From contig CAVURJ010000001.1 of the NCBI GenBank assembly GCA_963743885.1, forward strand, positions 355,173 to 419,172: a stretch of DNA of 64,000 bases. Reading direction: 5' to 3'. Source of the stretch: Candidatus Moraniibacteriota bacterium (GTDB taxonomy: Bacteria > Patescibacteriota > Minisyncoccia > Moranbacterales > UBA1568). The stretch's first letter is position 1. Every line of letters starts with the position of its first letter. Of the stretch, positions 14,271 to 63,607 are shown piece by piece. Below the pieces are notes generated by a model. That model had not been told where the DNA came from and did no database searches. It saw nothing but the letters and a program-made list of their open reading frames with translations. Both the position numbers and the translations under genes were made by a program.

Positions 14271-14280
14271 TAAATAGGAG

Positions 14281-18839: not shown

Positions 18840-18844
18840 TCTCT

Positions 18845-20347: not shown

Positions 20348-20421
20348 TGCAAAGGTACTGAAACAGTACGCGCGCTTTACAGCGACGTAAAAACGTGCTA
20401 TACTGATAGGGTAGTGGAAAG

Positions 20422-20460
20422 GCGGGTGGTCTCGGAAACGGGACGCCCGCTTTTCTTTTT
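20422..20460 (+). terminator. hairpin plus T-rich tract downstream of the RT
   Basis: gcgggtggtctcggaaacgggacgcccgc followed by ttttcttttt, then a second long imperfect hairpin at 20461..20538. Confidence 0.45.
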
Positions 20461-25607: not shown

Positions 25608-26495
25608 ATGTATATCATCGGCCATCAGAAACAGAGGGAGCAGCTGCGGATGGCGGCGGAGCAGGGGAATCTCGCCCAGAGTTACTTGTTTTCCGGCCCG
25701 GATAGCGTCGGCAAATCGCTCTGTGCTCTGGAGTTCGCTTGCTGTTTGGCGGGGGAGCCAGATTTCGAGCCGGAGGCTGCAAAGGAAGCACCGTTCGATG
25801 TCATGATTGTTCGACCCGAGGAGGAGACGAAGCGCGGCGTGACGAAGACGAAGAGTATCGCGGCGGAGGATATCCGCGATGCGCTCTCGTTTCTGGGAAA
25901 GTATCCGGTTGCCGGCCGGTATCGAGCGGTCATCATCCTCGATGCGCACAAGCTGTCGATTTCGGCGCAGAACGTTCTTCTGAAGACGCTTGAGGAGCCG
26001 AATACCTCGGCGGTTATCATCCTCTCGACGCATGAATCCGGAAGCCTCCTGCCGACGATCATCTCCCGCGTGCAGCATGTCCGTTTTGGGCTCGTTCCAG
26101 AAGAAGATATCCGGTCCGGTGTTTCTGATCCAGGATCTCTTCCAGGGTTCTTCTTTTCACTTGGTCGTCCAGGAGCGATCATCCGCGCGCTCGGGAATCC
26201 GGAGGCCTTCGCGGGCGACAAGGAGCTTTTGAGCGGCTTGTTCCGTCTTTCTACTCTTTCCCTTGCGGAACGGCTTGTGCTTGCTGAGAAGATGGCGGGC
26301 GATGTGCCGCGCGCTATCCGGATGCTCGAATGGTGGCTGCCAGGACTGCATGCTTCTGCACTCAAGACTACCGAATCAGGAGCGACGGCGCGCTTCTTCG
26401 CGCTGCTCGATGAGACTGAACAAATGCTCCGTCTACTCAAGACGACACAGAGCAACGCGCGTCTCCTCCTGGAGCGGCTATTCCTTTCTGTTTGA
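25608..26495 (+). CDS. holB: DNA polymerase III delta' subunit
   Basis: SYLFSGPDSVGKSLCALEFA AAA+ P-loop-like motif and delta' architecture. Confidence 0.8.
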   Translation: MYIIGHQKQREQLRMAAEQGNLAQSYLFSGPDSVGKSLCALEFACCLAGEPDFEPEAAKEAPFDVMIVRPEEETKRGVTKTKSIAAEDIRDALSFLGKYPVAGRYRAVIILDAHKLSISAQNVLLKTLEEPNTSAVIILSTHESGSLLPTIISRVQHVRFGLVPEEDIRSGVSDPGSLPGFFFSLGRPGAIIRALGNPEAFAGDKELLSGLFRLSTLSLAERLVLAEKMAGDVPRAIRMLEWWLPGLHASALKTTESGATARFFALLDETEQMLRLLKTTQSNARLLLERLFLSV

Positions 26496-27475
26496 ATCGT
26501 ATGGGTATCCTGGCGAAATGGAAGAAGACGCGCGGAACGAGAGGGGATTTCTCTTCGAAGGTGTTTACGTCGTCGCGCGCGATGGCTCGGCCGAACCGCC
26601 GAGAGGCGATTGATGGCAGGAAGCCACTGCCAATCGTTGACTTCGTCCTGTGGGGCTCGCTGCTTGCAGTTTCCGGTTATTTGCTCTTGTTCTCACCGTT
26701 TCTCACGGTAAGCCGAGTGGATATTTCAGGTCTTTCCGAGCTGGATGATTCGGATGTGCGTGCTGCGGTTATGAGCGAGCTTTCTGGCAAGCATCTTGGC
26801 ATCTGGCCGAAGGACAACTTCTTCGCGGTGCGACCGGCTAAGCTTTCCGGATTGCTCACCGGTCAGTATCCACTTTTGCGGGAGGTCTTGGTGACGCGCC
26901 GCTTCCCAGAGACGCTGCTTATAGAGGTGAAAGAACGCGAGCATATCGTGCTCTGGCACAGGGCGGGAGAGCAAGGCCTGATGCTCGGCGAGGATGGCCG
27001 GCTGTTCCAGAATGACCAAGTGTTTTCCGAAGCGAATGCGCCGTATGTCGTCTCGATCACTGATCTATCTGCTCAGCCGGCGGCCGAGGGTCAGCGTGTG
27101 GCTGATGAGCGGCTGGTTCCATTCGTTTCCTCGATAGGTGAGGAAATAGCACGTCGTCTTGGGCTTTCGGTCGGGAATGAGTATTCGATTGTATCGCGGT
27201 TCGCCGGTGAGCTCCGCATGACGACCGGTGAGGGGTGGGAACTTTATATGAGCACGGAGCGGCCGCTTGCTGCGACGCTTGATGCGCTTGCGCTTCTTTT
27301 TGAGAAGGAACTGTCGCCGGAAAAGCGGTCAGGACTCCGGTATATCGATATGCGCATCGAAAATCGCGTGTACTATGCTTTTAAGGATGCTCCAGCGGAA
27401 GAGCCAGCCATCGAGTCATCTGAATCATCGGATAAGAAGGAGGTTGTGGATGACGAGAAGAAAAAGAAAAAGTAG
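26492..27475 (+). CDS. ftsQ: cell-division protein FtsQ/DivIB-like (POTRA domain)
   Basis: single TM segment followed by POTRA-like VSRVDISGL...; true start probably downstream near 26582. Confidence 0.65.
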   Translation: MNRMGILAKWKKTRGTRGDFSSKVFTSSRAMARPNRREAIDGRKPLPIVDFVLWGSLLAVSGYLLLFSPFLTVSRVDISGLSELDDSDVRAAVMSELSGKHLGIWPKDNFFAVRPAKLSGLLTGQYPLLREVLVTRRFPETLLIEVKEREHIVLWHRAGEQGLMLGEDGRLFQNDQVFSEANAPYVVSITDLSAQPAAEGQRVADERLVPFVSSIGEEIARRLGLSVGNEYSIVSRFAGELRMTTGEGWELYMSTERPLAATLDALALLFEKELSPEKRSGLRYIDMRIENRVYYAFKDAPAEEPAIESSESSDKKEVVDDEKKKKK

Positions 27476-27997: not shown

Positions 27998-29893
27998 TCA
28001 GTCCGCGACGGGAGGAATGTAATAGATGAAGAAAGAATCTCCGACGCGGGTGACAGGCGTGTAGTCCTTGAGCCAGGAGTAGTCGCGCTGGCCTGCAGGC
28101 TTCTCCTTGTAGAGGCTTTCCTGATAGAAGAAAGAGCAGATCGCGTACCAGCCGGCCTCTGGTTCTCGTTTGTCCCACCATGGAATAAACATGTTACCAA
28201 GGTAGTAGGCCGGGCTCGATCCGCCGAAGTAGTCGACGCGGATCTTGTCGATCGGGGGAAGCGTGGCGAGAGAGTCGTCACATCTGGTGGATGTATCCGT
28301 TCCGGCGATGCAGGCATTGTGTTCCTCGATGAACCCTCTGAGGTATTTGAGATCCTGGCCCCAGTCGTAGTTGGAATCAGTGACGTACTTGTAGCCGTTC
28401 TGGTGGCCGCCGGCCGCGGCATTGAAGTACGAGAGGTAGTGCGGGAAGGCGAGTACGGGGATTGCGATGATGGAGAGAGCGAGGCCGAGGATAACAATCC
28501 GTGAAGTCTTGCGGTCGGCAGCGTCGCCATCCTGGCGCTTGAGAAAATCGCCGACGGTCTTGCCGACGAGCAGATACAGGAATGGTAAGATCGGAAAGAG
28601 ATGGCGGAATCCGATATTGAGATTGCCAGTTACGCTTATCGACATGTAGTAGAAGATGAAGAACGCTGCGAGATACTGGGCGGTCCGCGCCTGGAAGGAT
28701 CGGGCGAAGATGCGCCAGAGCGAATCACCCGCAGCGCGCTCTCCGAGATAGGCTTTCGCTATGCGGAAGAGTGAGTAGAAGAGCGTGGCGAGGATCAGGA
28801 AGAGGAATGGGAGCGTTTCCTTGAGCATGAAGACGAGCGGGAAGTATGAAGCACTCGCTTTGTCGGAAACGGTACCGAGGTAGTAATAGACATTGCCAGC
28901 GCCGACGCGTGAGAAGACTTTGGCGACGCCGACAAAATAGACAGCAAAAGGTCGGAGGACGGGGGATTCACCGAGCGTCACGATGGCTGAATGAGCCATC
29001 TGGGCCGGGGTGTTGGGTTGCGAGAGGAAGAGATCAGCCAGGGCGTTCACTTTTTCTGCTGGCATGGCGAAGGTGTTGAGCGCGTAGACGATCCAGATGA
29101 GCACGAATGAGACAGCGACGCTGCCGGCATATTTGAGGATATAACTGATGATCGTCCGGCTCCGGAACGAGAGAACTGTCCGGCTGTCTGTCTTTGGCTG
29201 AAGGAGTGTCATGGCGGCGAGGAGCGCGAAGAGTCCGAAGGCTGGAAAAAGGAGCACGGCTGAGAACTTGGTCAGCTGTGCGATTCCGAGGAAAAAGCCG
29301 GCGACAAAGACATTTTGCCAGTTCGGGTGTCTGAGGAAGCGGACGAAGAAGTAGGCGGCAGCGAAGACTGCAGCGGCGATACCGATATCGGTCGTGACGT
29401 AGTGGCTATGGGCGATGACGTTGGGGTCGGCCGCATAGAGGAGCGTCGCGAAGAGACCGGCGACGGTGCCGCCGAGCTCACGCGTCCAAGCGAAGATACC
29501 GAGACCGAGAAGGACAGCGACCAGTGTGATAGGCAGTCGCGACCAGAAGAGGATCGCATCTGAATCATTGCAGATCTGGGATGGGTCGGTGCAATTGAGG
29601 AAGAGATCACCAAGGATCCATTGTTCGTTGCGTCCGGTCTGCCAGGCATCGGATCCATAGGGGAAGGAGATATTGAGGAACTGGAGCGGAAAACCGGAGA
29701 GATCCTTGATAAGCGGTGGATGTTCCGGATTGACGCGCATGTCGTACGCATCGAGGTATGAATAGGCGGCCGGAATATGAGCGCGCTCGTCATAAGTAGC
29801 CGATTCTTTGAGGGAAACAGTGGTCGATACGATGAAGAGCGCCGCGAGCATAAGGGCGACGAAGCGTAGTGGATAGCGTCTGAGCACTTCCAT
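27998..29893 (-). CDS. family-39/PMT-like membrane glycosyltransferase (dolichyl-phosphate-mannose-protein mannosyltransferase / ArnT-like)
   Basis: 631 aa polytopic; N-terminal DE...HPPL loop-1 motif of GT-C enzymes. Confidence 0.75.
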   Translation of the reverse strand: MEVLRRYPLRFVALMLAALFIVSTTVSLKESATYDERAHIPAAYSYLDAYDMRVNPEHPPLIKDLSGFPLQFLNISFPYGSDAWQTGRNEQWILGDLFLNCTDPSQICNDSDAILFWSRLPITLVAVLLGLGIFAWTRELGGTVAGLFATLLYAADPNVIAHSHYVTTDIGIAAAVFAAAYFFVRFLRHPNWQNVFVAGFFLGIAQLTKFSAVLLFPAFGLFALLAAMTLLQPKTDSRTVLSFRSRTIISYILKYAGSVAVSFVLIWIVYALNTFAMPAEKVNALADLFLSQPNTPAQMAHSAIVTLGESPVLRPFAVYFVGVAKVFSRVGAGNVYYYLGTVSDKASASYFPLVFMLKETLPFLFLILATLFYSLFRIAKAYLGERAAGDSLWRIFARSFQARTAQYLAAFFIFYYMSISVTGNLNIGFRHLFPILPFLYLLVGKTVGDFLKRQDGDAADRKTSRIVILGLALSIIAIPVLAFPHYLSYFNAAAGGHQNGYKYVTDSNYDWGQDLKYLRGFIEEHNACIAGTDTSTRCDDSLATLPPIDKIRVDYFGGSSPAYYLGNMFIPWWDKREPEAGWYAICSFFYQESLYKEKPAGQRDYSWLKDYTPVTRVGDSFFIYYIPPVAD

Positions 29894-29914
29894 AATGAGC
29901 AGATGATAAATTGG

Positions 29915-31540
29915 TTACGGTAGACGGACGATGGTAAAGGCGCTTCCGGTGCCTGGCCGCGGGTCGATTTCTATGACTTTGGCTTCTGGGGAGCGGGCGA
30001 GGATGTTGGCGATGACTTTGTCGTTGCGTGAGATGAAGATGATGATGCTGTCATAGCGCGAGATGGTCACATCGGCATCAGGAATGAGCCAGGTGAGGTT
30101 CTTGATCTTTCCGTCAGTCAGAAAGACAATCGGCTGAGCATCGATCGGGAGGTGGTTGCCGACGATGCGGCTTCGGTCGTTTGAGACGACGTATTTATGT
30201 GTTTCTTCCGGCAGAGCGAGGAGGTATTCGGCGATATTGCGCTCGTTTAGGGAGAATGAGCTCATCTGGCTCGGGCTCCCGGCGAAGTAGACGAAATATT
30301 TGGTGAGATTGATGGCGGCGCTCGCACCGAGGAGGATGATCAGTGCTGAGAGGAGCATCGTCCGCTTGGTATGCCGCGCAGTGATGCCGTGTTTGGCTAT
30401 CCAGAAGACAGGGAGCGTCGCCATGAGGAAGACCGGTACTTGGGTGCCGATGGAGCGGAGTGCGTGTGGCAGTCCCTCGTGGGTGAGGAATTCCGGCATG
30501 AGCATGACGAAGAACGATCCGAGGAGGAAGGTATTGCGCACGAGCCGGAGATCGCGGTCCTTGCGTATCAGCCTTCGGCCGAGGAGTAATCCAGCCTGCC
30601 AGACAGTATAGATGAAGCCGGCAAGGAAAAGTGCACCGACGATCGGATCAAGGACGGGATAGGGCGGATAGTTGTGTCGCCAGTTCTGGTCGCCCCAGAA
30701 GTTGTATTTGATGAGGCTAAGTGTGACGGTTTTGCTCATTGTTCCGAGGAGATCACCGTGGTTAATCTCCGGGGAGAAGATGGAGACGGCAGCGGAACGG
30801 GAGGCAAAATCTCCTGGATGCGAGATGAAGAAATGGTAGAGCATCGGAGCGGCCGAGACGAAAGCGCCGAAGATGAAGACGACTCCGTGTTTCCAGTAGC
30901 GCCTGAGGAAGTCCTCGTAGGAGAGGATGAGTACTGGGAGAAGGATGACGAGGATGAGTGGTGCGACGCGGAAGGCGACGTACGTATGGAGTCCGAGACC
31001 GAAGATGAGGCCACCCCAGAGGAAATCTGCGAATTTGCGTGTGCGGAGGCCGCGGAAGAAGAAGTAGAAGGAGAACGAGAGGATGAGCGACGTCATAATC
31101 GCCCGGAAGCCGATGCGGGAGAAGTTGATCGCCCAGAAGGAGGTGGCAGTGATGAAGGCGGCGATGAGTCCGGCGGAACGGCGGCGGAAGAGTTCGGCAG
31201 CGAGGAGATACATGCCCCAGACAGTCAACGTGCCGAAGATGATCGACCAGAGTTTGAGGGCAGGAATGGTGTTGCCGAGAGCCTTGAGCGCCAAGGCCTG
31301 GAGGTTGATGAAGAGCCCTTCGCGGCCGTAATTGTTCTCGTAGAAGAGGAGGTAGTCGCCGGTCCGGTTGGCGTAGGTTGCATCGGCCGCATTGACGGCT
31401 TCGTCGGGGTAGATGCCGGAGGGGATGTCTGAGATACGGTAGCTTCGGACGAAGAGTGCGAGGAGAAGGATGAGTGTGAGCACTCCGAAATTTATGAGCC
31501 GTGCACGCTGGGTGTTGTTCATATGTTTTTTTATTACCAA
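29915..31540 (-). CDS. ArnT/GT83-GT39-like membrane glycosyltransferase
   Basis: 541 aa polytopic; YRISDIPSGIYPDEAVNA GT-C loop motif. Confidence 0.75.
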   Translation of the reverse strand: MVIKKHMNNTQRARLINFGVLTLILLLALFVRSYRISDIPSGIYPDEAVNAADATYANRTGDYLLFYENNYGREGLFINLQALALKALGNTIPALKLWSIIFGTLTVWGMYLLAAELFRRRSAGLIAAFITATSFWAINFSRIGFRAIMTSLILSFSFYFFFRGLRTRKFADFLWGGLIFGLGLHTYVAFRVAPLILVILLPVLILSYEDFLRRYWKHGVVFIFGAFVSAAPMLYHFFISHPGDFASRSAAVSIFSPEINHGDLLGTMSKTVTLSLIKYNFWGDQNWRHNYPPYPVLDPIVGALFLAGFIYTVWQAGLLLGRRLIRKDRDLRLVRNTFLLGSFFVMLMPEFLTHEGLPHALRSIGTQVPVFLMATLPVFWIAKHGITARHTKRTMLLSALIILLGASAAINLTKYFVYFAGSPSQMSSFSLNERNIAEYLLALPEETHKYVVSNDRSRIVGNHLPIDAQPIVFLTDGKIKNLTWLIPDADVTISRYDSIIIFISRNDKVIANILARSPEAKVIEIDPRPGTGSAFTIVRLP

Positions 31541-31543
31541 ACG

Positions 31544-31622
31544 AAGTGAGTGAAACGAAAGTTTGCTTTCGTTTCCGAACGCAGTGCTGGTAAAATCAGG
31601 TATAATACTCCGCGGCTTGCCC
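31544..31622 (+). repeat. conserved intergenic element R2 (hairpins plus tgGTAAAAT box)
   Basis: aligns to 12564..12656 with compensatory hairpin changes. Confidence 0.6.
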
Positions 31623-31761
31623 GCCTAGCCGGTGAGTCTAGCCGCAGAAAGAAATGAACATCGGTTCGTTACCTGTTGTTATCCCGCTGCCTTCCGACAG
31701 CGTTTTTTGTTTCTCTTTCTTTATGGTACAATTATAGCAAATCGCATATGAAAAAAACAGC

Positions 31762-32943
31762 ATGTTCGGGAGAGGTTTTTCATTTTTTCAAGGAGCGGCC
31801 GAATCTCGCGCAACGAGTGGGGGGTCGATAGGGTTTATAGACGCAGACGTGTCCAAGGAAAAGATTTCTAGTGGTAATGGGGAGATCACTTTTTTTGGTA
31901 CGCCGCAATCTTCTATGCCGATAGCAGAAGAGTTTATGGGGCCCGCTGGGGCGAAAATTATACAGTGGCCGGTTGTTGATGATGCGGAAGCGGAGAAGAG
32001 GATGGAGGAGTTGAGGGAGGCACATCATTCGGATGTCTTATTGAAGGGCGTTGAAGACACTGGGGTAGCCGAGTCGGTTGCTATCCCTGTCAGGGAGGAA
32101 GTATCGTCTGTGGATGCGACCGTTGTTCCGGCGGAGGAGGCTGTAGCGTCGTCAGAATTGGTTTCTCAGGCAGTATCGGGGAATGTTGCGAAAGTTTTAG
32201 TGCATGTTGAAGGAGAGGCGGAAGCGCCTGAGATACAGACTGAGGCACAGAAGCAGTTCGAGGCGCTTGAAGAGGAGATTGAACAGGAGATCAATGAGAT
32301 AGACAAGATGATCAAGAGTCATCGGAAGACGGTCCAGATGCGCGCGATGAACAAATGGACGCATGAGGAGGAATGGACCAAGCTAACTGCGGCGCTCGAT
32401 CAGGCGAAGGCGGATATGGATGCAGCTATCGATCTTGCTAATGGAAATGGACATGAGCAGGAGGCGCTTGATCAGCTCAAGAAGATCAAAGCGAGTCTCG
32501 ATATCAGTGTGCTTGAGGTCAAGGTGCTGCCGGAGCTTGAAGAAGAAACAGTGGATGTAAAAGTGCCTGTTGCTGAGAAGAAAAAGAAACAAGGGGAGGG
32601 TCCGAAGAAGAAGCCAGAGGGAAAAAAGAAGGCGGTTGCGAAGCAGGAAACGCGCGAGTCGGAAGAGGTAGTATACGAGAGACTTGAGCGGATGGCTGAG
32701 GATGATGGCGCGTATCATACGGTTTTGGGCGCTATCGCGGCCGGTCTGCGTACGATGAAGGAGACTGTTCCGGGTATCGAGAAGAGGAAGGATGAGCTTT
32801 CGGGTCGTATCGCGGAAGCGATCGCTCTGAAACTGGAGCATCCTATCGTTGCGACCGGAGAGCGGCTCGGCTGGTCCGCGGATGAGACTGGATTGTTCGC
32901 GCGGGAGATTGTCCGGAAGGGTATCGAGAAATTTCTGAAATAA
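31762..32943 (+). CDS. hypothetical acidic coiled-coil protein
   Basis: 393-aa ORF; first gene of a tightly packed plus-strand block 31762..39166. Confidence 0.55.
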   Translation: MFGRGFSFFQGAAESRATSGGSIGFIDADVSKEKISSGNGEITFFGTPQSSMPIAEEFMGPAGAKIIQWPVVDDAEAEKRMEELREAHHSDVLLKGVEDTGVAESVAIPVREEVSSVDATVVPAEEAVASSELVSQAVSGNVAKVLVHVEGEAEAPEIQTEAQKQFEALEEEIEQEINEIDKMIKSHRKTVQMRAMNKWTHEEEWTKLTAALDQAKADMDAAIDLANGNGHEQEALDQLKKIKASLDISVLEVKVLPELEEETVDVKVPVAEKKKKQGEGPKKKPEGKKKAVAKQETRESEEVVYERLERMAEDDGAYHTVLGAIAAGLRTMKETVPGIEKRKDELSGRIAEAIALKLEHPIVATGERLGWSADETGLFAREIVRKGIEKFLK

Positions 32944-32964
32944 GATTAAGAAGGAGGGATATCT

Positions 32965-33543
32965 ATGACGAAGGAAGGGATGAATCATGCGCCTACTGAT
33001 GCCGAGATAGATGCGGCCATCCTCAAGGGAGCAGAGGTCGCTGGCGAAGAGGCACGTAAGGGTCTTGGATTGCCGGCGGAGGCACCGGTTGTTGGGGCTG
33101 TTCCGGAAGCAAAGCCGGCTGTTGTTGAAGCTGCTCCGAAGACTGAGAAGACGCCGGAGAAGGTTCGGAGTCCCAAGAACAGCAAATCGACTTCTCCTAT
33201 GAGTGCGACCGGAGCTGGGAGAAATAGGAGCGGTCGCGTCGGGAAGAAGGTCGCTAAGAAGATATCTCAAGAAATTGCTGCTGAGACCGGTTCCGGCACG
33301 ATCGTCGAAGAGGAGAATCCGGAAGCGAGGCCTGTCAGCGCGGGATTTCCGGAATGGGGCGTTTCGCGGGATTCGGTGTATGAATCGCGGATGATTATCC
33401 CGATGGTTCAGAATGAGGTTTTGGTGGAAGCGGTCTCTTCCGGGATGCGAGAAGAGAAAGCGCCGGCCGCGGTTGCTGAGGCGGTTGCTGATTCGGTTTC
33501 AGATGGCGGTCGCTTCGGATGCTGGTGCGGCTGGATCTGGTGA
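32965..33543 (+). CDS. hypothetical protein (Ala/Pro/Glu-rich)
   Basis: 192 aa; its TGA stop overlaps the ATG of the next gene (TGAgATG). Confidence 0.5.
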   Translation: MTKEGMNHAPTDAEIDAAILKGAEVAGEEARKGLGLPAEAPVVGAVPEAKPAVVEAAPKTEKTPEKVRSPKNSKSTSPMSATGAGRNRSGRVGKKVAKKISQEIAAETGSGTIVEEENPEARPVSAGFPEWGVSRDSVYESRMIIPMVQNEVLVEAVSSGMREEKAPAAVAEAVADSVSDGGRFGCWCGWIW

Positions 33544-33544
33544 G

Positions 33545-35719
33545 ATGCAGCCTCATAAAGCTTGGAAGGTGTCGGCGCAGGAGGGGTGGTATAAGGAAGA
33601 GGAGGGGCATGGTCCGGAAGGCGGTGATGAGGATGAATTCGTAGTGAAGAATCCGAGGATAGCGATCCCTGGCAGTTCGGAGTGGAGTGAGGTGATGGCA
33701 GCGTATGGTCGAACTGCGGATACCGCGTCCGGGGAGGCTGAAAGAGGGACGATCGACAAATTAAAAGATGAGGTCGCCGGATTGCGAGCGAAATACGCGT
33801 CGAGAATGTATGAACATAGCCGATTGGCAGCGAATCTGAAGTCATCGAAGATCGGAAGATTTTTCAGTCTTGGGGATGCTGATGAGGCTGATCTTGAATA
33901 CTGGAGGAGGGAATATGAAGAGAAGCTCGCAGCGCTCCGTGAGGCGGAGCTCGAGGAGATCAAAGGATCTCGTCTCAAGGGACAGGAGCTCAAGGAGGCC
34001 ATGGCAGGATTGCTCCGTGCATCAAAGGTGGACGAAGTGCTTTCGCTGATCAGTGATCGGGATACGTATCGGCTTGAAGGAAATAAATGGTCAGATAAGG
34101 TTTATAATACTTTTCGGTCAGTAGGTGAGTGGTATAACAAGGTACCGAAGAGGTATAAGATCATGGCTGGCGTAGCAATCGGATCGCTTGCGCTTGGTAC
34201 GGCTGCAATGGGCGGGGTGGCTTTGGCGGGTGGAGTGAAAATTGCACGGCGATTGGTCTCTGGCGCCGGTTTTGCGGTAGCTATTGATGCCGCGCTTGAT
34301 GCGAAGATGGAAGAACGCTTTAAGAAGCAGGCAGAATATGAGATTGAAGTGGAGCTCGATCAGATGTTTGGTTCGGTCGAGCCGTCCACAGAAGGTAAGT
34401 CGTCTTCTGAGCGCTCGCAGGAAGAGATGATGCAGATGTTCGAGGAACGTTTGCAAGCTGCTTCTGGCGGGGTGACGCTCGTATTTGAGGACCAACTTTT
34501 CAAGCGGAAGTTGAATGGCGTCGCAGGTGTCGCTGCCGGTACGATCGCAGGTTTCGCAGGTTCGGCGGCAATGGAATGGTTCAAGGAGAGCGGTGCGGCG
34601 GATGCGACACGCGATATTCTTTTTGGGCAGGATGCCGAGCCAATCCAGATGACTGATGCGGAATTGGCTGCTCGGACGGCAGCGGCTCGCGATATGGCTG
34701 AGGAATATGGGAGTGCCTCGCCGGAGCGACAGCTCGATATCCGGAATGCCACGAGTATGACTGATGGCCAGCTCTCTGCTTTGGCGCGGACGATCGAGAT
34801 AGAAGGCGGGCATATTGTTCCGGGATCAGTCAGTGCTGTGGAAATAGTCTCAGCTGGACCGAATGAGATTGTAAAAAGCCTGCTTTTAGAGCATGAATTG
34901 ACAACAGCCGATGCTAAAAGAGGGTTGTGGGGCGTGCTCGAATCGCGTTTGCCGGCCGATATGTCGGGAGCGGATAAGGCGCGCACGATTGCGGCATTGG
35001 AGAATGCGATCAGCCTGAAGGTTGGGCAGATGTCACCAGAAGAGCGGCTGGCAGCTGGTTTCCGGGGCAACAATATCGGTGAGGTATTCGCTGGCGATAC
35101 GCTTCATCTCGATAGGGTGCTATCGGTCGATGAAGTGCGGACTGCGATGGAAGGCGGGCATGCCTCTGGTATTGGATCGGCGGTTGCGGAGCATCATGTA
35201 GCCGGATCGGCCGGGATTGAGAAGCATGCCGGTGTTGTCGCGCATGATCACGGCGGTCCCGCTGTTCCTGATCGCGGTGCTGCCGCGGCGATTGCTGAGC
35301 CGGTTACGGAAGCGGCGGATATCGAGACGATGTCCCAGGCACTTCGCCCGCGTGTCGATAGCTGGTTTGACCAGATCTTCCGTGCTGAGAATGAGATGCT
35401 GGGATCGGGGCGTGATTGGGTTGTCGATCGCGAACGGATCAGCAAGATCAGCATCCGTGATATGATGCGTGATGCCGCATTGTATGGGCGGGGAGCGGTT
35501 TCGGGGTATCGGACAGGACTTTCCGTCGAGCAGATTAAGAATTTCATCCAGTTTTTCAAAGAAGTCGGTGATGGTGTTAAGGATCAGGATGCTATGACGG
35601 AGATCATCTATGCCACGGTAGTGCCAGGGAAGGATATGACGGTGGCGGAATATCTTGAGAGGGTTGCGCCACTCGTCAAAAAGAGCCAGCATCTCGGGCC
35701 CTTCACGACGCCCGTCTAG
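33545..35719 (+). CDS. large hypothetical protein with coiled-coil and internal hydrophobic segments
   Basis: start moved to the ATG at 33545 (ORF track 33413); Gly/Ala-rich TM-like stretch GVAIGSLALGTAAMGGVALAGG. Confidence 0.55.
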   Translation: MQPHKAWKVSAQEGWYKEEEGHGPEGGDEDEFVVKNPRIAIPGSSEWSEVMAAYGRTADTASGEAERGTIDKLKDEVAGLRAKYASRMYEHSRLAANLKSSKIGRFFSLGDADEADLEYWRREYEEKLAALREAELEEIKGSRLKGQELKEAMAGLLRASKVDEVLSLISDRDTYRLEGNKWSDKVYNTFRSVGEWYNKVPKRYKIMAGVAIGSLALGTAAMGGVALAGGVKIARRLVSGAGFAVAIDAALDAKMEERFKKQAEYEIEVELDQMFGSVEPSTEGKSSSERSQEEMMQMFEERLQAASGGVTLVFEDQLFKRKLNGVAGVAAGTIAGFAGSAAMEWFKESGAADATRDILFGQDAEPIQMTDAELAARTAAARDMAEEYGSASPERQLDIRNATSMTDGQLSALARTIEIEGGHIVPGSVSAVEIVSAGPNEIVKSLLLEHELTTADAKRGLWGVLESRLPADMSGADKARTIAALENAISLKVGQMSPEERLAAGFRGNNIGEVFAGDTLHLDRVLSVDEVRTAMEGGHASGIGSAVAEHHVAGSAGIEKHAGVVAHDHGGPAVPDRGAAAAIAEPVTEAADIETMSQALRPRVDSWFDQIFRAENEMLGSGRDWVVDRERISKISIRDMMRDAALYGRGAVSGYRTGLSVEQIKNFIQFFKEVGDGVKDQDAMTEIIYATVVPGKDMTVAEYLERVAPLVKKSQHLGPFTTPV

Positions 35720-35749
35720 GTATAACTAATTACCAATTACTAAAGACAT

Positions 35750-36061
35750 ATGATCGATCAGCAAGCGCTTACGCAGGAGCTTATCGCCGCCTTCCATTTA
35801 GAAGGTATCCCGAAAGAGAAGCAGGAGGCGCTCATCGCCAAGATGGGCGAGGCTATCCTGAAGCGTATCTTTCTTGAGACGATGGAGAAAATCGGCGACG
35901 AGGGCGTGAAGGAATATGAAACTCTTCTTGACCGGCAGGCAGGAGAGCAGGAAATTAGCGCGTTTTTCGAGGCGAAGATTCCGGGGTATGATATATTCGT
36001 GGAGGATACGGTGAAGAAGTTCAAGGAGGATATGCTTCAGGGTATGGCAGCAGGTAACTAA
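35750..36061 (+). CDS. hypothetical small protein
   Basis: 103-aa ORF in the operon. Confidence 0.5.
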   Translation: MIDQQALTQELIAAFHLEGIPKEKQEALIAKMGEAILKRIFLETMEKIGDEGVKEYETLLDRQAGEQEISAFFEAKIPGYDIFVEDTVKKFKEDMLQGMAAGN

Positions 36062-36572: not shown

Positions 36573-36646
36573 TCGAAACAGATCCTTTGCTTGATGATTG
36601 GTGCTTGGTTCTTGGGATTTGTTTTGTTTCAGAAAAAACAAAACTT

Positions 36647-39166
36647 ATGGAGGGATTCGACTATAATACGGTATTCGTGCCGCTGGCCTGGGTGCTTGCC
36701 TGTGTAGCGCTCGGCAGCGGAATATTTCTGATTCTCAGGAGCTTTTTTCGTTTCCGCTACCAGGTGAACCAGTCGATTGCAATGGATATCGAGCTGGTCC
36801 GTGTCGTGAAGCCGGTGATTCAGTCGGAAGTTCAGACGTCGAAAGAGGCTTGGAAGGAAGAAGTGCTTGTCATGGAGAAACTGTTTGCGGCTATGGCATC
36901 CTTCAAACGGAGCGCGAGTCCGATGAAGCGGTTTTTCTATGAGACGCCGACAATCGTGCTTGAGATGGCTCAGCCGGCGGGAAGTGAGGAGATACTCTTT
37001 TTCATCGCGATGCCGAAGAAGTTCCGTGATGGTATCGAGAAGCAGGTACATAGCTTTTTTCCTGGCGCGGTCATCGAGAAGATGGCTGATTATACGATTT
37101 TCTCACCAGGGAGCGCGACCGCGCTCTCGATGCTTGGGCTCAAGTCCGATTCAGCATTGCCGCTTCGTACATATAATGCGTTCGGGACTGATTCGCTCGA
37201 TGAGTTCGCGAGCGCGATGAGTAAGCTTGATACCAGCGATGAAGGCGCGGCAATCCAAGTCGTCTTAGCTCCGTGCCATGAGAACGGATGGCGCAAGCAT
37301 GCGAAAGAGATCGCTCGGCGCATGCAGCAGGGGAAACGGCTCAAGGAAGCCGCGGAACATCCGAGTTCATCCGGGTCAGCATTTCTTACAGGTGTCGCTA
37401 AGGGTGTGGTAAAAGAAGCGGCTGGAGCAGCGACTTTCGGTGTCGTCGGAAAGAAGTCTGATTCTACCAAGCCAGATGCTGAAGAGAAAGTTGTCTCTCT
37501 CACTCCCGAAGAGCAGGAAACGCTCAAGGCGATCGAGACGAAAGCGGCAAGCCCGGCTTTCCGGGTGAATATTCGGTTGCTTACGTCTGCTCGGACGGAG
37601 GCGCGTGCGGAAGAGCTTCTTGGTCAGCTTGAGACGGCGTTCACGCAGTTTGATCACCCGGAAGTGAATACGCTCCAGGTGAAGCGTCGAGTGAAGAAGA
37701 AGCAGGCTGCCTTTGATTATATCTTCCGCAATTTCGACGAAGAGATGTCGATGACACTGTCTTCTGAGGAGATTGCAAGCATCTTCCATTTCCCGATATC
37801 GGTGACAGAGACGCCCAAGATCAAGTGGCTCAAGTCGGGTGCTGCCGCTCCGCCAATCAATATTCCGAAGGAAGGCCTCCTGCTCGGCTATAACGAGTAT
37901 CGCGGCATCAAGTCGGAGATCCGCATCACGGATAATGACCGTCGTCGACATATGTATGTCATCGGTCAGACCGGTGTCGGCAAGTCGAACTATCTCCAGG
38001 AGATGGCTAAGAAGGATGCTCAGGCCGGCAAAGGATTCTGTTTTATTGATCCGCATGGCGATGCTATCGAAGATATCCTAACTGCTATTCCGAAAGAGCG
38101 CGCGGAAGATGTGATTATTTTCGACCCATCGGACATGGCTCGGCCAATCGGTATCAATATGCTTGAATACGATCCGGCGCATCCGGAACAGAAGACGTTC
38201 GTCATCAACGAGATGATCGGCATCTTCGACCAGCTCTACGATATGAAGGCGACCGGCGGACCGATGTTCGAGCAGTATATGCGCAATGCCATGCTACTCA
38301 TCATGGAGGATCCGGAGAGCGGATCGACGCTGCTTGAGATCTCTAAGGTGCTCTCGGATGAGGATTTCCGCCGGTACAAGCTCTCGAAGTGCACGAACCC
38401 GATTGTCCGCGACTTCTGGATCAAGGAGGCGGAGAAGGCCGGCGGTGAGGCGGCGCTCGCCAATATGGTGCCGTACATTACGTCCAAACTCACGACGTTC
38501 ATTTCGAACGACATGATGCGTCCAATCATTGCGCAGCAGAAGAGCGCGCTTGATTTTCGCGCCATCATGGACGGCCGGAAGATCCTCCTTATCAACCTTT
38601 CCAAGGGCAAGATTGGCGAGATTAATGCCAAACTGCTCGGTATGGTCGTCGTCGGCAAGATCCTCATGGCAGCACTTTCCCGCGTCGATATGCCAGAAGC
38701 TGAGCGTGAGGATTTCTATCTCTATCTTGATGAATTCCAGAACGTGACGACGAATTCGATTGCGCAGATCCTCTCTGAGGCGCGCAAGTACCATCTCTGC
38801 CTCATCTTGGCGCACCAGTTCATCGGGCAGCTCAAAGAGGAGATCTCCAAGGCAGTCTTCGGCAACGTGGGATCGCTCTGCTCGTTCCGCGTCGGTCCGG
38901 AAGACGCTGAGTTCCTTGAGAAGCAGTTTGAGCCGGTCTTCACGGCGAATGATATTGTCAATGTTGATAACTATAACTTCTTCGCGCGGCTGCTCATGAA
39001 CAACGAGTTGACCAAGCCGTTCAATATGAAGACATATCCGCCGACCCATGGCGATCAGGAGGTGGCCAATGCGTTCAAGGAGCTTTCCCGTCTGCGGTAC
39101 GGCCGCGATACCGATATCGTTAATCGGGAGATCATGAGCCGCATCCGTCTCGCTGAAGGAGCGTAG
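36647..39166 (+). CDS. membrane-anchored P-loop ATPase of the VirD4/TraD-HerA/FtsK superfamily (type IV secretion coupling-protein-like)
   Basis: N-terminal TM helix, Walker A GQTGVGKS, Walker B region LYLDEFQN, then ARKYHLCLILAHQ, typical of TraG/TraD/DUF87 ATPases. Confidence 0.6.
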   Translation: MEGFDYNTVFVPLAWVLACVALGSGIFLILRSFFRFRYQVNQSIAMDIELVRVVKPVIQSEVQTSKEAWKEEVLVMEKLFAAMASFKRSASPMKRFFYETPTIVLEMAQPAGSEEILFFIAMPKKFRDGIEKQVHSFFPGAVIEKMADYTIFSPGSATALSMLGLKSDSALPLRTYNAFGTDSLDEFASAMSKLDTSDEGAAIQVVLAPCHENGWRKHAKEIARRMQQGKRLKEAAEHPSSSGSAFLTGVAKGVVKEAAGAATFGVVGKKSDSTKPDAEEKVVSLTPEEQETLKAIETKAASPAFRVNIRLLTSARTEARAEELLGQLETAFTQFDHPEVNTLQVKRRVKKKQAAFDYIFRNFDEEMSMTLSSEEIASIFHFPISVTETPKIKWLKSGAAAPPINIPKEGLLLGYNEYRGIKSEIRITDNDRRRHMYVIGQTGVGKSNYLQEMAKKDAQAGKGFCFIDPHGDAIEDILTAIPKERAEDVIIFDPSDMARPIGINMLEYDPAHPEQKTFVINEMIGIFDQLYDMKATGGPMFEQYMRNAMLLIMEDPESGSTLLEISKVLSDEDFRRYKLSKCTNPIVRDFWIKEAEKAGGEAALANMVPYITSKLTTFISNDMMRPIIAQQKSALDFRAIMDGRKILLINLSKGKIGEINAKLLGMVVVGKILMAALSRVDMPEAEREDFYLYLDEFQNVTTNSIAQILSEARKYHLCLILAHQFIGQLKEEISKAVFGNVGSLCSFRVGPEDAEFLEKQFEPVFTANDIVNVDNYNFFARLLMNNELTKPFNMKTYPPTHGDQEVANAFKELSRLRYGRDTDIVNREIMSRIRLAEGA

Positions 39167-59717: not shown

Positions 59718-59746
59718 TTGACAATATTCCAGTCTTCCTCTACAAT
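59718..59746 (+). promoter_or_regulatory. strong sigma70-like promoter TTGACA-17-TACAAT upstream of infA
   Basis: consensus hexamers and 17-bp spacer, followed by an about 160-nt leader. Confidence 0.6.
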
Positions 59747-59908
59747 GGTAACTACGTTTGAAAAACCGCATAGATTCGGGAAAGAGAGGGCAACCGAGAG
59801 CCGTTTTCAGGAACGAGGATCGATCGAGTGCCAAAAGGAAACTTCTCTGTTTTTTGTCGTTTACAGAGCTTTTTTCCATGAATCTTGCTAGCGAAAAAAC
59901 CGTACGGT

Positions 59909-60130
59909 ATGGCCAATAATAAGGAATTGATCCGGGTAGAGGGCGAAGTGCTCGAAACACTTCCCAGCACTACTTTCCGTGTCCGTCTCGATAACGGGCA
60001 TGAGGTCCTGGCTCATATTTCCGGCCGCATGCGCGTGCATTATATCCGTCTTTTGCCAGGGGATCGCGTGACGCTCGAGATGAGCCCGTACGATCTCTCG
60101 AAAGGTAGAATCGTCCTGCGAAACAGATAA
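59909..60130 (+). CDS. infA: translation initiation factor IF-1
   Basis: S1-like OB fold sequence (ELIRVEGEV...[19 protein letters not shown]); ATG at 59909 preferred over the TTG of ORF 59885. Confidence 0.9.
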
Positions 60131-60140
60131 CTGCGAATTT

Positions 60141-60254
60141 ATGAAAGTGAGAGCATCAGTCAAGAAAATCTGCGCGAATTGCAAGATCGTGAAGCGCAAG
60201 GGTGTCATTTTCGTCATCTGCGCCAATCCTAAGCATAAGCAGCGCCAGGGCTAA
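60141..60254 (+). CDS. rpmJ: 50S ribosomal protein L36
   Basis: [37 protein letters not shown], canonical L36 zinc ribbon; not in the ORF track. Confidence 0.9.
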
Positions 60255-60269
60255 CTAGGAGAACCTACT

Positions 60270-60659
60270 ATGATAAGAATCGCAGGCATCAACATTCCGG
60301 ATAATAAGAGGATCGAAATCGCTTTGACGTATGTCTATGGCATCGGTCTTCCGACGAGCCAGAAGATCCTCAAGGATCTTGGTATCGACGCGAATGTCCG
60401 TACGAAGGATCTCTCTACTGAGGATGCAAATAAGCTCCGTGAGACGATTGAGAAGAAGCATCGTGTCGAAGGTGAGCTCCGCCATGTTGTGAAGAGCAAT
60501 ATCAAGCGCCTGAAGGAGATCGGTTGCTATCGCGGTACCAGGCATCAGAAGAGCCTGCCGGCCCGCGGTCAGCGCACCAAGACCAATACCCGTACTGTCC
60601 GTGGCAACGTACGCCGCACGATGGGCAGCGGCCGCAAGAAGTCAGACGCCAAGACTTAA
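60270..60659 (+). CDS. rpsM: 30S ribosomal protein S13
   Basis: [10 protein letters not shown]...YGIG N-terminus and basic C-tail. Confidence 0.95.
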
Positions 60660-60769
60660 AATAGTTTTCAGCTTCGCTAGCTCCTTAGCTTCGCTAGCGG
60701 AATCAAGAAAGACTAATGAAGCTAAAAGCTAATGAAGCTAATGAAGCTAATGAAGCTCAGAAATATAGT

Positions 60770-61228
60770 ATGGCAGACGAAGTGAAGACAACTGATGAGA
60801 CGACGGAGGCCCCGGAAAGCGCTGTTGCCGCTGCTGCGGATGCAGTCGCTGAGAAGAAGCGCAAGAAGTCGTCCAAGCGCCAGATCCTGAAGGGTCGGGC
60901 GAGCATCCAGTGCACCTACAACAACACGATCGTTTCGATCGCTGATCTTTCGGGTGCCGTCCTCGGATGGTCGAGCTCTGGACACATGGGTTTCAAGGGC
61001 GCCAAGAAGTCGACACCGTATGCTGCTACCCAGGTAGTCGCTGAGCTTTCTGAAAAGGTGAAGAAATATGGTATCCAGGAACTCGAAGTCTTCGTGAAGG
61101 GTGTCGGCAGTGGTCGCGAGGCCTCTATCCGCGCTCTGTCCAACAATGGCTTCAACCTCGTTGCGATCAAGGATATCACTCCGATTCCTCACAATGGTTG
61201 CCGTCCGCGCCGTCCGCGCCGCATTTAA
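60770..61228 (+). CDS. rpsK: 30S ribosomal protein S11
   Basis: S11 core (ASIQCTYNNTIVSIADLSGA...GFKGAKKSTPYAA); start at the internal Met after the low-complexity (gctaatgaa)n leader of ORF 60716; manual start may be off by 1 nt. Confidence 0.9.
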   Translation: MADEVKTTDETTEAPESAVAAAADAVAEKKRKKSSKRQILKGRASIQCTYNNTIVSIADLSGAVLGWSSSGHMGFKGAKKSTPYAATQVVAELSEKVKKYGIQELEVFVKGVGSGREASIRALSNNGFNLVAIKDITPIPHNGCRPRRPRRI

Positions 61229-61243
61229 CCGAAGAAGAATACT

Positions 61244-61873
61244 ATGGCCATTATCGATTCCAAATGCAAACTCTGCCGCCGCGCTGGCGAAAAGCTCTTC
61301 CTCAAGGGGGACCGCTGTCTGTCGCCGAAGTGCGCGATGGTGCGTCGGCCGTATCTTCCGGGTGTCCATGGACATAATCCTTCCCGCGGTGGTAGCGAAT
61401 TCGGCCGCCAGCTCGCGATGAAGCAGAAGATCAAGCGCCTCTACGGTGTCATGGAGCGTCAGTTCCGCCACCACTTCGATGAGGTGAGGAAGACCCCGGG
61501 TATCACCGGTGATCAGCTGCTCTCCCGTCTCGAGCGTCGTCTCGACAACGTGATCTATCGCCTCGGTTTCGCGGCTTCCCGCGTCCAGGCCAAGCAGCTC
61601 GTTTCGCACAAGATGTTCGAGGTGAACGGCAAGCGCATGAATATCCCGTCTGTCGAGGTGCATGTCGGCGATGTGATCGCTCTCAAGCAGAACAAGAAGG
61701 ACAAGACGTTCTTCAAGCTCCAGTCTGAGATCATGAAGGGTAAGAAGGATGTGCCGCACTGGCTGGAACTCGATACTGAGAAGCTCGTCGCCAAGGTGAT
61801 CGCGCTTCCGACCCGTCAGGATGTCGGCGTGAGCGTCGATCCGCAGATGGTCGTCGAATATTACTCCAAGTAG
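61244..61873 (+). CDS. rpsD: 30S ribosomal protein S4
   Basis: Cys cluster CKLCRR...C..KC and S4 domain. Confidence 0.95.
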   Translation: MAIIDSKCKLCRRAGEKLFLKGDRCLSPKCAMVRRPYLPGVHGHNPSRGGSEFGRQLAMKQKIKRLYGVMERQFRHHFDEVRKTPGITGDQLLSRLERRLDNVIYRLGFAASRVQAKQLVSHKMFEVNGKRMNIPSVEVHVGDVIALKQNKKDKTFFKLQSEIMKGKKDVPHWLELDTEKLVAKVIALPTRQDVGVSVDPQMVVEYYSK

Positions 61874-61974
61874 TCAACGCCCGGATGGGCCGTAAATCAT
61901 AATCAACGCTAAGCGTTTCCGGTGACCAGTCAATATCCGCCAGGTCCGACAGGTCATCCGAGACAAGCAAAGAT

Positions 61975-62790
61975 ATGCAGACGATAACCGTGCCGCAGCA
62001 GCCTAAGCAGACCGTGCTAGGCCAGAACCACAGCAAGTTCGAGATCATGGGGTGCTTCCCGGGCTATGGCACCACGCTTGGAAACGCGCTGCGCCGTGTG
62101 CTGCTCTCGTCTCTCGAGGGCGCCGCTGCGAAGTCTGTGAAGATATCAGGTGTTTCCCATGAGTTTTCCGCCGTTGATGGCGTCATGGAAGATGTCGTGC
62201 AGATCATCCTCAACATGAAGCAGGTCCGCTTTCGCCTCCATGGCGAAGAGGATGAGACCGTCAAGGTGACCCTCAAGCACAAGGGCGAGGGCGCAGTGAC
62301 AGCGGGTATGATCAAGGTTCCGTCGAATGTCGAAGTCGTCAATCCGGACCAGGTGATCGCCACGCTGACCGACAAGAAGACCGAGTTCGAGATGGAGATT
62401 GAGATCGACCGCGGTCTCGGGTATGTCCCGGCTGAGGCTCGTGAGAACGAAGAGCGTGAAATCGGCGTCATCGCTATCGACGCGATCTATACTCCGGTCA
62501 AGCGCGTGAACTACGAGATCGAGAACATGCGCGTCGGAAAGCGCACGGATTATGATAAGATCACCCTCGAGGTGGTGACCGACGGCAGCGTGACGCCGGA
62601 AGAGGCTTTCATGAAGGGTGTAAACATCCTTATGGGACAGTTCTCGGCTATGTCTGCTTTTGCGACAGATGAGGTGGCAGCCCCAGCGGAAGCTGTTGAG
62701 GCCCCGGTCGCTGAGGAGGCTCCGGTTGCCGAAGAGTCTGAAGAGAAGCCGAAGAAGGCCGCAAAGAAGAAGAAGACCGAAGAGGAATAA
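61975..62790 (+). CDS. rpoA: DNA-directed RNA polymerase subunit alpha, N-terminal domain only (no alpha-CTD)
   Basis: 271 aa; alpha-NTD motifs present; ends in a low-complexity acidic/Lys tail instead of the about 80-aa HhH C-terminal domain. Confidence 0.85.
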   Translation: MQTITVPQQPKQTVLGQNHSKFEIMGCFPGYGTTLGNALRRVLLSSLEGAAAKSVKISGVSHEFSAVDGVMEDVVQIILNMKQVRFRLHGEEDETVKVTLKHKGEGAVTAGMIKVPSNVEVVNPDQVIATLTDKKTEFEMEIEIDRGLGYVPAEARENEEREIGVIAIDAIYTPVKRVNYEIENMRVGKRTDYDKITLEVVTDGSVTPEEAFMKGVNILMGQFSAMSAFATDEVAAPAEAVEAPVAEEAPVAEESEEKPKKAAKKKKTEEE

Positions 62791-62814
62791 GTCACCAGTC
62801 AGCATGTCAGCATT

Positions 62815-63180
62815 ATGAAGCATAGGCACACAGGCCGTATTCTCTCCCGCGGCAGGAACCAGCGCAGAGCGCTTATCAAGACTCTTCTTGGGAGCTTGAT
62901 TCTCCATGAGAGCATCACTACGACCGAGGCGAAGGCCAAGGAAGTCAAGGATTATGTCGACCAGATCGTCGGCAAGGCCAAGGTGGCTCGAAATGATGAG
63001 AAGCGCCGCGTCGCTATGATTCGCGAGCTCCGCAAGAAGCTCCCGTTGGTGGCTGTCGAGAAACTTGTCTCCGATTTCGGCGCTCGTTTCGACGCTCGCC
63101 AGAGCGGCTATACCCGTATCGTGAAGCTCGATGCCAGGAAGAGCGACAGTGCTCGTATGGCTGTCATCGAATTCGTCTAA
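62815..63180 (+). CDS. rplQ: 50S ribosomal protein L17
   Basis: MKHRHTGRILSR...TTTEAKAKE L17 signature. Confidence 0.93.
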   Translation: MKHRHTGRILSRGRNQRRALIKTLLGSLILHESITTTEAKAKEVKDYVDQIVGKAKVARNDEKRRVAMIRELRKKLPLVAVEKLVSDFGARFDARQSGYTRIVKLDARKSDSARMAVIEFV

Positions 63181-63193
63181 GCAATCCTCCCTT

Positions 63194-63607
63194 ATGGCAC
63201 AGAAGAAGAACATGATCGATCGGAAGTACCACCTCTTTGATGCGCAGGGGAAGGTGCTCGGCCGCCTTGCGACTGAGATCGCTACGATACTGATCGGCAA
63301 GGACAAGGTTACCTATGCTCCGCATATTGATGGAGGCGATTTCGTCGTGATCATCAATTCCGATGGTATCGATGTGACCGGCAACAAGCGCACTGACAAG
63401 ATGTATCATCGCTTCTCGGGCTATCCGGGCGGCATCACCTCGATTGCTTTCAAGGACCAGCTCAAGAAGGATTCGAGGAAGCTGATCCATCAGGCGGTCT
63501 ACGGTATGCTTCCGAAGAACACTCTCCGCGACCGGATGCTCACCAGACTCCGTATCTACAAGAAGGGCGAGCACGGGCACAAGGCGATCCATGTAACACA
63601 CGACTAA
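63194..63607 (+). CDS. rplM: 50S ribosomal protein L13
   Basis: start at the internal Met of ORF 63131; L13 motifs (KVLGRLATEIATIL...GDFVVIINSD). Confidence 0.92.
   Translation: MAQKKNMIDRKYHLFDAQGKVLGRLATEIATILIGKDKVTYAPHIDGGDFVVIINSDGIDVTGNKRTDKMYHRFSGYPGGITSIAFKDQLKKDSRKLIHQAVYGMLPKNTLRDRMLTRLRIYKKGEHGHKAIHVTHD

Follow-up and report, generated by a model that had tools for sequence, protein, structure and literature searches.

RNA polymerase alpha subunits of Moranbacteria-type Patescibacteria lack the C-terminal domain and may carry a minimal DNA-binding tail in its place

A 64,000-nucleotide stretch of a Candidatus Moraniibacteriota genome (assembly GCA_963743885.1, contig CAVURJ010000001.1, positions 355,173 to 419,172 of the forward strand; hereafter the window) encodes an RNA polymerase (RNAP) alpha subunit, RpoA, that ends without the C-terminal domain of alpha (the alpha-CTD). 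The dimer of alpha N-terminal domains (alpha-NTD) nucleates core assembly, and the alpha-CTD is a textbook part of bacterial RNAP that reads UP elements and serves as the main handle for class I activators. We are nearly certain that the alpha-CTD is truly absent from the window rpoA and that its absence is fixed in the lineage. The shortened protein ends in an acidic linker followed by a lysine block, and a second lineage of Patescibacteria without the domain ends its alpha subunits in an AT-hook. Comparison of these sequences suggests that the tails could be disordered modules resembling HMGA and histone H1 that partly replace the contacts of the alpha-CTD with upstream DNA, a proposal to which we give about even weight.

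An alpha subunit reduced to its N-terminal domain

The rpoA coding sequence (61975..62790, + strand) runs from an ATG start to a TAA stop and specifies a 271-residue alpha subunit without an alpha-CTD. Its alpha-NTD (residues 1-230; 61975..62664, + strand), the platform for dimerisation and beta/beta' assembly, is intact, as an earlier reading of the letters alone (the sequence-only reading) had claimed. Pfam places PF01000 at residues 55-173 (2.9e-36) and PF01193 at residues 28-222 (3.5e-22), and both structural alignment and structure prediction agree. Two NCBIfam rpoA equivalogs are passed, NF003519 with 285.3 bits (cut-off 277) and TIGR02027 with 265.8 bits (cut-off 227.8), the matches to the NCBIfam rpoA models ending at model position ~220-247 of ~300-340. 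Scores fall under the cut-offs of six further PRK05182 sub-models because the CTD part is absent.

Solved alpha subunits in the PDB (best 5e-59) cover the query only over residues ~16-227, or as far as 254. The matching part of E. coli alpha is residues 20-232, and the alignment with E. coli RpoA that the sequence-only reading had suggested covers the NTD only. An AlphaFold2 model built from a 39-sequence alignment folds residues 1-230 with a predicted local distance difference test score (pLDDT) mostly of 80-93 and a final helix at 208-229, and Foldseek matches the predicted model to alpha-NTD chains with template modelling (TM) scores of 0.83-0.86. The LGNALRRVLLSS motif of the alpha-NTD is conserved.

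No trace of the missing domain was found. Pfam detects no alpha-CTD family PF03118 in RpoA, even at E<=1. An alpha-CTD hidden Markov model (HMM), built by jackhmmer from the E. coli CTD and 84 CTD-bearing homologues and run with all filters off, has no match in the six-frame translation of the window (best E 0.4); its positive control, a relative that bears the CTD, gave 3e-21. The absence stated in the sequence-only reading is borne out. The search for the domain elsewhere covered the window and nine loci of relatives (+-10 kb each), and no alpha-CTD-like sequence was found at the orthologous CTD-less loci.

The same architecture extends through the relatives. All of the best 120 database homologues (68-98% identity; drawn from NCBI, JGI, ENA and Logan, the named ones being Candidatus Moranbacteria or Moraniibacteriota) are 236-301 residues long and carry PF01000 and PF01193 only, which makes the loss lineage-wide among the orthologues that the earlier reading had proposed to check. 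On a 767-kb Moraniibacteriota contig (JBAQEZ010000003.1), a 263-residue rpoA lies in the same infA-rpmJ-rpsM-rpsK-rpsD-rpoA-rplQ-rplM-rpsI cluster, with no PF03118 within +-10 kb of it.

A normal alpha-CTD could in principle be concealed by a frameshift, by faulty assembly or by a gene call cut short, and many CTD-less entries among distant database representatives are indeed frameshifted or chimeric. The sequence-only reading had named such an error as what would overturn it, and had noted that rplQ follows directly. The latter is correct: rplQ, encoding L17 (62815..63180, + strand; Pfam PF01196, 1.2e-26), lies directly 3' of rpoA and starts 24 nt past its TAA stop, which leaves no space for a frameshifted alpha-CTD of ~70 residues. 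No frame encodes alpha-CTD-like sequence, and the architecture recurs in more than 100 independent assemblies from the four databases and on long contigs. We tested the artefact explanation and rejected it as extremely improbable.

Another alternative is an alpha-CTD supplied in trans, encoded elsewhere in the genome by a split gene or by a second rpoA paralogue of full length. Two alpha paralogues coexist in Francisella (PDB 6wmp chains), and our search took in 64 kb of this genome and +-10 kb around orthologues. Neither the window nor the relatives' loci yielded such a sequence, the best 120 homologues are all short, and a free alpha-CTD would be untethered from RNAP. The CTD-less gene also occupies the canonical operon position and is therefore the orthologue. 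We consider supply in trans very unlikely. The window rpoA is a genuine orthologous alpha subunit of a Candidatus Moranbacteria-type bacterium of the Patescibacteria, or Candidate Phyla Radiation (CPR), and we class its product with the RpoA orthologues, in a CTD-less subtype distinct from the canonical two-domain alpha.

A retained linker ends in a conserved lysine block

Beyond the alpha-NTD, AlphaFold2 predicts residues 231-271 to be disordered (pLDDT 28-36); the tail quoted in the sequence-only reading, EVAAPAEAVEAPVAEEAPVAEESEEKPKKAAKKKKTEEE, spans residues 233-271. Three segments can be told apart. An acidic, Ala/Pro/Val/Glu-rich disordered linker covers residues 231-257 (62665..62745, + strand), as delimited by pLDDT and by collinearity with a CTD-bearing relative. 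The terminal lysine block KPKKAAKKKK, a proposed DNA-contacting element, covers residues 258-267 (62746..62775, + strand). An acidic cap, TEEE, closes the protein at residues 268-271 (62776..62787, + strand), and most orthologues have a [TS]E[EA] ending behind the lysine block.

The closest CTD-bearing relative shows what was removed. This 322-residue protein, TAK96341.1 of a 'Patescibacteria group bacterium' (P0121), is 65% identical to the window protein, retains PF03118 and is encoded at a locus with the same gene order as the window. In a BLASTP alignment, query residues 1-256 are collinear with its residues 1-253, the Ala/Pro/Val/Glu-rich stretch included, which identifies the acidic segment as the inter-domain linker that was kept. 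Where P0121 continues into its CTD (254-322), the query has EKPKKAAKKKKTEEE, 15 residues for ~70-80 folded residues. The folded alpha-CTD has been deleted precisely, and a complete alpha-NTD, the old linker and a 10-residue lysine block remain.

Across 39 orthologues (68-91% identity), the linker is hypervariable in sequence and length, and the lysine block follows a conserved K-x-KK-x-x-KKKK pattern in which K261 and K265 never vary and at least 90% of the orthologues keep K264 and K266. At the codon level, AAG and AAA replace one another from orthologue to orthologue without change of the lysine. At least five Lys or Arg residues fall within a 10-residue window near the C terminus in 118 of the 120 homologues. 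Together these features point to selection on the block. Charge is similarly patterned: the linker carries -10 in the window protein, and among 110 orthologues it has a median length of 28 residues and a charge of -7, followed by a basic block of +7 and a cap with a median of 5 residues and a charge of -2. The sequence-only reading had described only a low-complexity tail after the alpha-NTD. Low complexity and disorder both hold; the word 'only' does not, since a conserved lysine block stands beside the hypervariable retained linker.

With 7 Lys in 10 residues, the block has the highest C-terminal Lys/Arg density among the 57 open reading frames (ORFs) of the window and is not a general habit of the genome. 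It has the make-up of histone H1 tails (disordered, Lys/Ala/Pro-rich, with high positive charge density), a likeness that is compositional rather than one of homology and that spans 10 residues against ~100 in H1.

A second lineage ends its alpha subunits in an AT-hook

A CTD-less representative from outside this family, P0151, served as the query for a second one. The search listed 120 homologues at 63-100% identity, named Candidatus Falkowbacteria or Patescibacteria, and PF01000 and PF01193 are the only domains in every one of them. A hypervariable acidic linker leads to the canonical AT-hook KKRGRPKK at the end of 108 of the 120; the other 12 have lysine-rich terminal blocks, and the ends are Lys/Arg-rich overall in 119. 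The linker is 35 residues long with a charge of -7 and the block carries +7, which matches the Moranbacteria family. A 233-kb contig of the Falkowbacteria type has the same synteny. An acidic linker of ~30 residues (~-7) leading into a basic block (~+7) was reached independently in other CTD-losing Patescibacteria.

The alpha-CTD was lost repeatedly

We widened the sample to the 150 best representatives at 50% clustering. The alpha-CTD is present in 83 or 84 of them, depending on the E-value cut-off, and ~22-26 are genuine CTD-less forms with acidic-then-basic tails; the remaining representatives are fragments or frameshifted or chimeric calls and were left out. One locus cut by a contig end (L004) groups with CTD-bearing relatives and was not counted as CTD-less. 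Within the Parcubacteria, Giovannonibacteria retain the CTD, and a protein named 'Parcubacteria group bacterium' (P0235) is without it.

In a neighbour-joining tree of the alpha-NTD (208 columns, 200 bootstrap replicates), the Moranbacteria clade has 96% support, as does the clade that joins it to P0121 and P0123, both CTD-bearing. The closest CTD-bearing relatives are the sister group of the CTD-less Moranbacteria. Monophyly of all CTD-less forms was recovered in 0 of 200 replicates, and the alpha-CTD has therefore been lost at least twice in Patescibacteria. A Kerfeldbacteria alpha (L005; 281 residues, 49% identical) falls outside the Moranbacteria+P0121+P0123 clade; its tail contains ...EEKPKKKAAKKKKDE... 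and ends in ...EEKPKKKAAKKKKDETEGTED. Judged from these sequences, losses probably number more than two.

We also considered whether tail type tracks genome GC content, with AT-hooks in AT-rich genomes. Locus values reject this idea: GC is 50.6% at a Falkowbacteria-type locus (L008), 45-51% at Moranbacteria-type loci and 53.5% in the window.

What the tail might do

Class I activators target the alpha-CTD, which also binds UP elements in the minor groove (PMC12641261, PMC8321222), and RNAP without an alpha-CTD is viable in vivo in B. subtilis (PMC4495994). That the window enzyme has lost its alpha-CTD-dependent contacts with UP elements and class I activators, as the sequence-only reading proposed, follows from established knowledge of the domain, and the simplified promoter architecture it foresaw is plausible.

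In the mechanism we propose, the core enzyme would assemble normally on the alpha-NTD dimer. UP-element reading through the helix-hairpin-helix of the alpha-CTD would be lost, and activators that dock on that domain could not recruit RNAP. Each alpha would carry a tethered, disordered, HMGA/H1-like basic peptide, which the linker would allow to reach DNA just upstream of the -35 element. The lysine block would bind to backbone or minor groove largely irrespective of sequence, and the AT-hook version would prefer AT-rich minor grooves. Such a tail could act as a cheap, generic boost to promoter complex formation, and the acidic spacer would probably keep it extended and damp non-specific binding.

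The retained linker, the conserved lysine block and the AT-hook at the same position in an independent CTD-less lineage together indicate that upstream DNA contact may have been replaced, not simply lost. The closest functional parallel is CarD of Myxococcus xanthus, also an RNAP-bound module with a disordered acidic segment and then a basic region. In CarD, an RNAP-beta-binding CarD_CdnL_TRCF domain precedes an HMGA-like C-terminal region, with RGRP AT-hooks behind a disordered acidic stretch. The protein binds to AT tracts at -63 and -77, and histone H1 or its lysine-rich tail can stand in for the AT-hook domain (PMC4374960, PMC8156234). This interchangeability fits the occurrence of both AT-hook and lysine-block tails among alpha subunits. 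The likeness has bounds: CarD is an accessory factor with four AT-hooks and a ~50-residue acidic region, whereas the alpha tail is a single basic block fused directly with a core subunit, so that each enzyme has two such blocks, and CarD and the alpha tail have no sequence homology.

Several observations weigh against a DNA-binding tail that arose by repeated replacement. The GRP core of AT-hooks was not found in the window tail, which has lysines only, and it occurs in 0 of 120 Moranbacteria-type homologues; the window protein is therefore not an AT-hook protein, and its lysine block may work like one. On related tails, the Pfam AT_hook model PF02178 scores 12.5-13.1 bits, under its gathering cut-off of 17.4, and the AT-hook assignment therefore rests on the motif itself. 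The whole tail has a net charge of -6. One other window ORF, the FtsQ-like protein described below, has an alpha-like tail (KKKKK), and such tails are therefore not unique to alpha. At the promoter match upstream of infA (below), there is no AT-rich tract at -40 to -60, the upstream 30 nt being 50% AT, and nine promoter-like sites in the window, a small sample, have no AT enrichment upstream of -35 (0.50 versus 0.53 in intergenic DNA). The deep nodes of the tree, computed by neighbour-joining from only ~210 NTD columns, are unsupported.

Some of these points would suit a purely reductive loss, in which a small genome that has few regulators could do without the alpha-CTD, the tail is a functionless leftover linker with a drifting charged end, and RNAP makes no alpha-mediated upstream contacts. 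Hodgkinia and Tremblaya, with their reduced genomes, have indeed lost the alpha-CTD (PMC8321222), the tail is of low complexity and predicted to be disordered, UP-like AT enrichment is absent at the nine promoter-like sites, and another window protein has a similar end. A neutral remnant would not be expected to hold its length or its basic end. The lysine block has invariant positions beside a hypervariable linker; independent lineages arrived at an acidic-then-basic layout whose charge statistics are nearly the same; and in one of them RGRP, a specific DNA-binding motif, is kept in 108 of 120 proteins down to 63% identity. This conservation and convergence weaken the neutral-remnant explanation, which we regard as unlikely, if the strongest of the competitors.

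A functional tail could also have a partner other than promoter DNA, such as RNA, an acidic protein or regulator (a new activator-docking site), or the nucleoid or a condensate with which RNAP associates. Lysine-rich disordered tails are promiscuous, the window promoters are without AT tracts, and the negative overall charge of the tail suggests intramolecular or protein contacts. The Falkowbacteria-type AT-hook, in contrast, is an established minor-groove DNA-binding motif, and in the established structure of RNAP the tail exits the alpha-NTD where the alpha-CTD normally reaches upstream DNA. A partner other than promoter DNA seems to us improbable.

For contact between the tail and upstream DNA, the arguments on either side are close to balanced. 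More tentatively, and with somewhat less confidence than in that contact, we suggest that several lineages of Patescibacteria independently swapped the alpha-CTD for a minimal HMGA/H1-like module, an acidic spacer plus an AT-hook or lysine block, which would be an undescribed way for RNAP to hold upstream promoter DNA.

Gene neighbourhood and promoters

Upstream of rpoA, and all on the + strand, lie ORFs for infA (59885-60130), rpmJ (60141-60254), rpsM (60270-60659), rpsK (60716-61228; Pfam S11) and rpsD (61244-61873; Pfam S4). The order infA-rpmJ-rpsM-rpsK-rpsD-rpoA-rplQ is common to CTD-bearing and CTD-less relatives, and the rpoA-rplQ adjacency recurs at four further loci (L005, L006, L008 and L009). 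The spc-alpha ribosomal cluster is split in the window: S5-L15-SecY-Adk-Map lies at its start (632-4453), and the second part, infA-rpmJ-rpsM-rpsK-rpsD-rpoA-rplQ-rplM-rpsI, lies ~55 kb downstream at 59885-63607. Directly upstream of infA is uppS, and a Moraniibacteriota relative has the same uppS-infA neighbourhood. The S11 ORF begins with a long low-complexity N-terminal extension (60716-60890), ANEANEANEA... followed by an acidic stretch and EKKRKKSSKRQ; the conserved S11 domain begins at residue 60, and the start codon of this ORF is uncertain.

The rpoA and rplQ genes share a reading frame, with the TAA stop and 8 sense codons between them (62788-62815). Stop-codon read-through that would fuse alpha to L17 was considered and rejected: the two frames differ in a relative (L009), and the shared frame in the window is therefore probably a coincidence.

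The best sigma-70-like promoter match, TTGACA-17-TACAAT (59718..59746, + strand; 11/12 consensus), stands upstream of infA and, as a consensus match only, is likely the promoter of the infA-rpoA-rplQ cluster. At a separate site, 14281 (14251-14309), GGGGTATTTTTTGTTTTTTTAAATAGGAG precedes TTGACA-18-TACTAT; at 73% AT, it is the sole promoter-like site with a strongly T-rich upstream tract, and it is a possible UP-like element, by sequence, in a genome whose alpha is without a CTD.

Other features of the window

The protein whose end resembles that of alpha is an FtsQ-type POTRA protein (26492-27475; Pfam 1.9e-08) with an acidic stretch and then a lysine run at its end, ...ESSESSDKKEVVDDEKKKKK.

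A complete diversity-generating retroelement (DGR) occupies 17697-20347. Its reverse transcriptase ORF (19196-20347) matches Pfam RVT_1 at 5e-25, its template repeat lies at 18742-18838, and its variable repeat (18223-18319) lies at the 3' end of the target ORF (17697-18323). The two 97-nt repeats are 82% identical, and all mismatches are A in the template. A 49-nt direct repeat, 73% identical, flanks the element at 17576-17624 and 20375-20423 and holds an extended -10 promoter-like box, TTTACA-17-TGTGCTATAAT.

A tRNA cluster at 52964-54185 comprises Thr-TGT, Tyr, Thr-GGT, Trp and Glu-CTC, with a small rpmG (L33) ORF at 53740-53898 between tRNA-Thr and tRNA-Trp. At the Rfam gathering threshold, the whole window holds no RNA families besides the tRNAs of this cluster. 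Beyond the tRNA-Glu gene (54113-54185), its 3' end recurs in three partial copies (GGATTCCCCTTAGGGCTAC-like) at ~54341, 54415 and 54551 (region 54113-54580), each preceded by a hairpin-like GGGGAATCGAAGGGTA unit. They look like serial 3'-end duplications and are possibly integrative-element scars. GC skew is unusually high, at 0.24-0.33, across 28000-36000. A 768-residue ORF at 33413-35719 has no Pfam match; after it, at 36587-39166, comes a VirD4/TrwB-like type IV secretion coupling protein.

Relation to known alpha subunits and meaning

Canonical RpoA (E. coli, B. subtilis and T. thermophilus; TIGR02027/PRK05182) shares with the window protein an orthologous alpha-NTD at 40-45% identity, a fold that the prediction matches, the operon position rpsM-rpsK-rpsD-rpoA-rplQ and a flexible linker that exits the NTD at the same point. 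Unlike it, the window alpha is without PF03118, hence without the UP-element reader and the class I docking surface (261/265/287 determinants). Archaeal RpoD and eukaryotic Rpb3/AC40 are likewise assembly-platform subunits with the same two Pfam domains and no alpha-CTD, but they form heterodimers with Rpb11/RpoL and often have other inserts, whereas the window protein is clearly bacterial.

The nearest precedents are Hodgkinia, Tremblaya and the Euglena plastid rpoA, in which the NTD is kept, the alpha-CTD is lost and the change is read as a loss of UP-element and activator input (PMC8321222). Compared with Hodgkinia and Tremblaya as that paper describes them, the loss in the window lineage is fixed across large, diverse environmental lineages with ~50% GC genomes, the linker survives, the protein has gained or held on to a conserved terminus that is basic or an AT-hook, and the loss occurred repeatedly. 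A CTD-less alpha is thus a known kind in extreme endosymbionts and some plastids; what is new is a conserved HMGA/H1-like tail evolved repeatedly in Patescibacteria.

Earlier mention is sparse. A single sentence of PMC8321222 says of the loss that it 'is also present in Parcubacteria', citing Nelson & Stegen 2015, whose main text leaves RNA polymerase unmentioned and whose supplement names rpoA solely among the core genes. According to a comparative study of 2025 (PMC12531629), the alpha-CTD is ubiquitous across all Bacteria. In the literature searched, which lay outside subscription journals, we found no pairing of the alpha-CTD with CPR or Patescibacteria beyond PMC8321222 and PMC12531629, and none of AT-hooks with CPR. 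The bare loss of the domain in Patescibacteria appears barely documented, and the conserved end that replaces it, basic or AT-hook, appears undescribed, as does its recurrence.

Large, abundant CPR lineages without an alpha-CTD bear on promoter prediction, on the inference of regulation and on how transcription factors are interpreted, in a part of the tree that makes up roughly a quarter or more of bacterial diversity. If the module swap is true, these lineages would have an RNAP with a built-in architectural DNA-binding peptide and no alpha-CTD-dependent activation, in contradiction to the described ubiquity of the domain (PMC12531629). The recurrent tail poses the question of how little can replace a folded DNA-binding domain, and it is a natural experiment in how disordered DNA-binding tails evolve on the core machinery of transcription.

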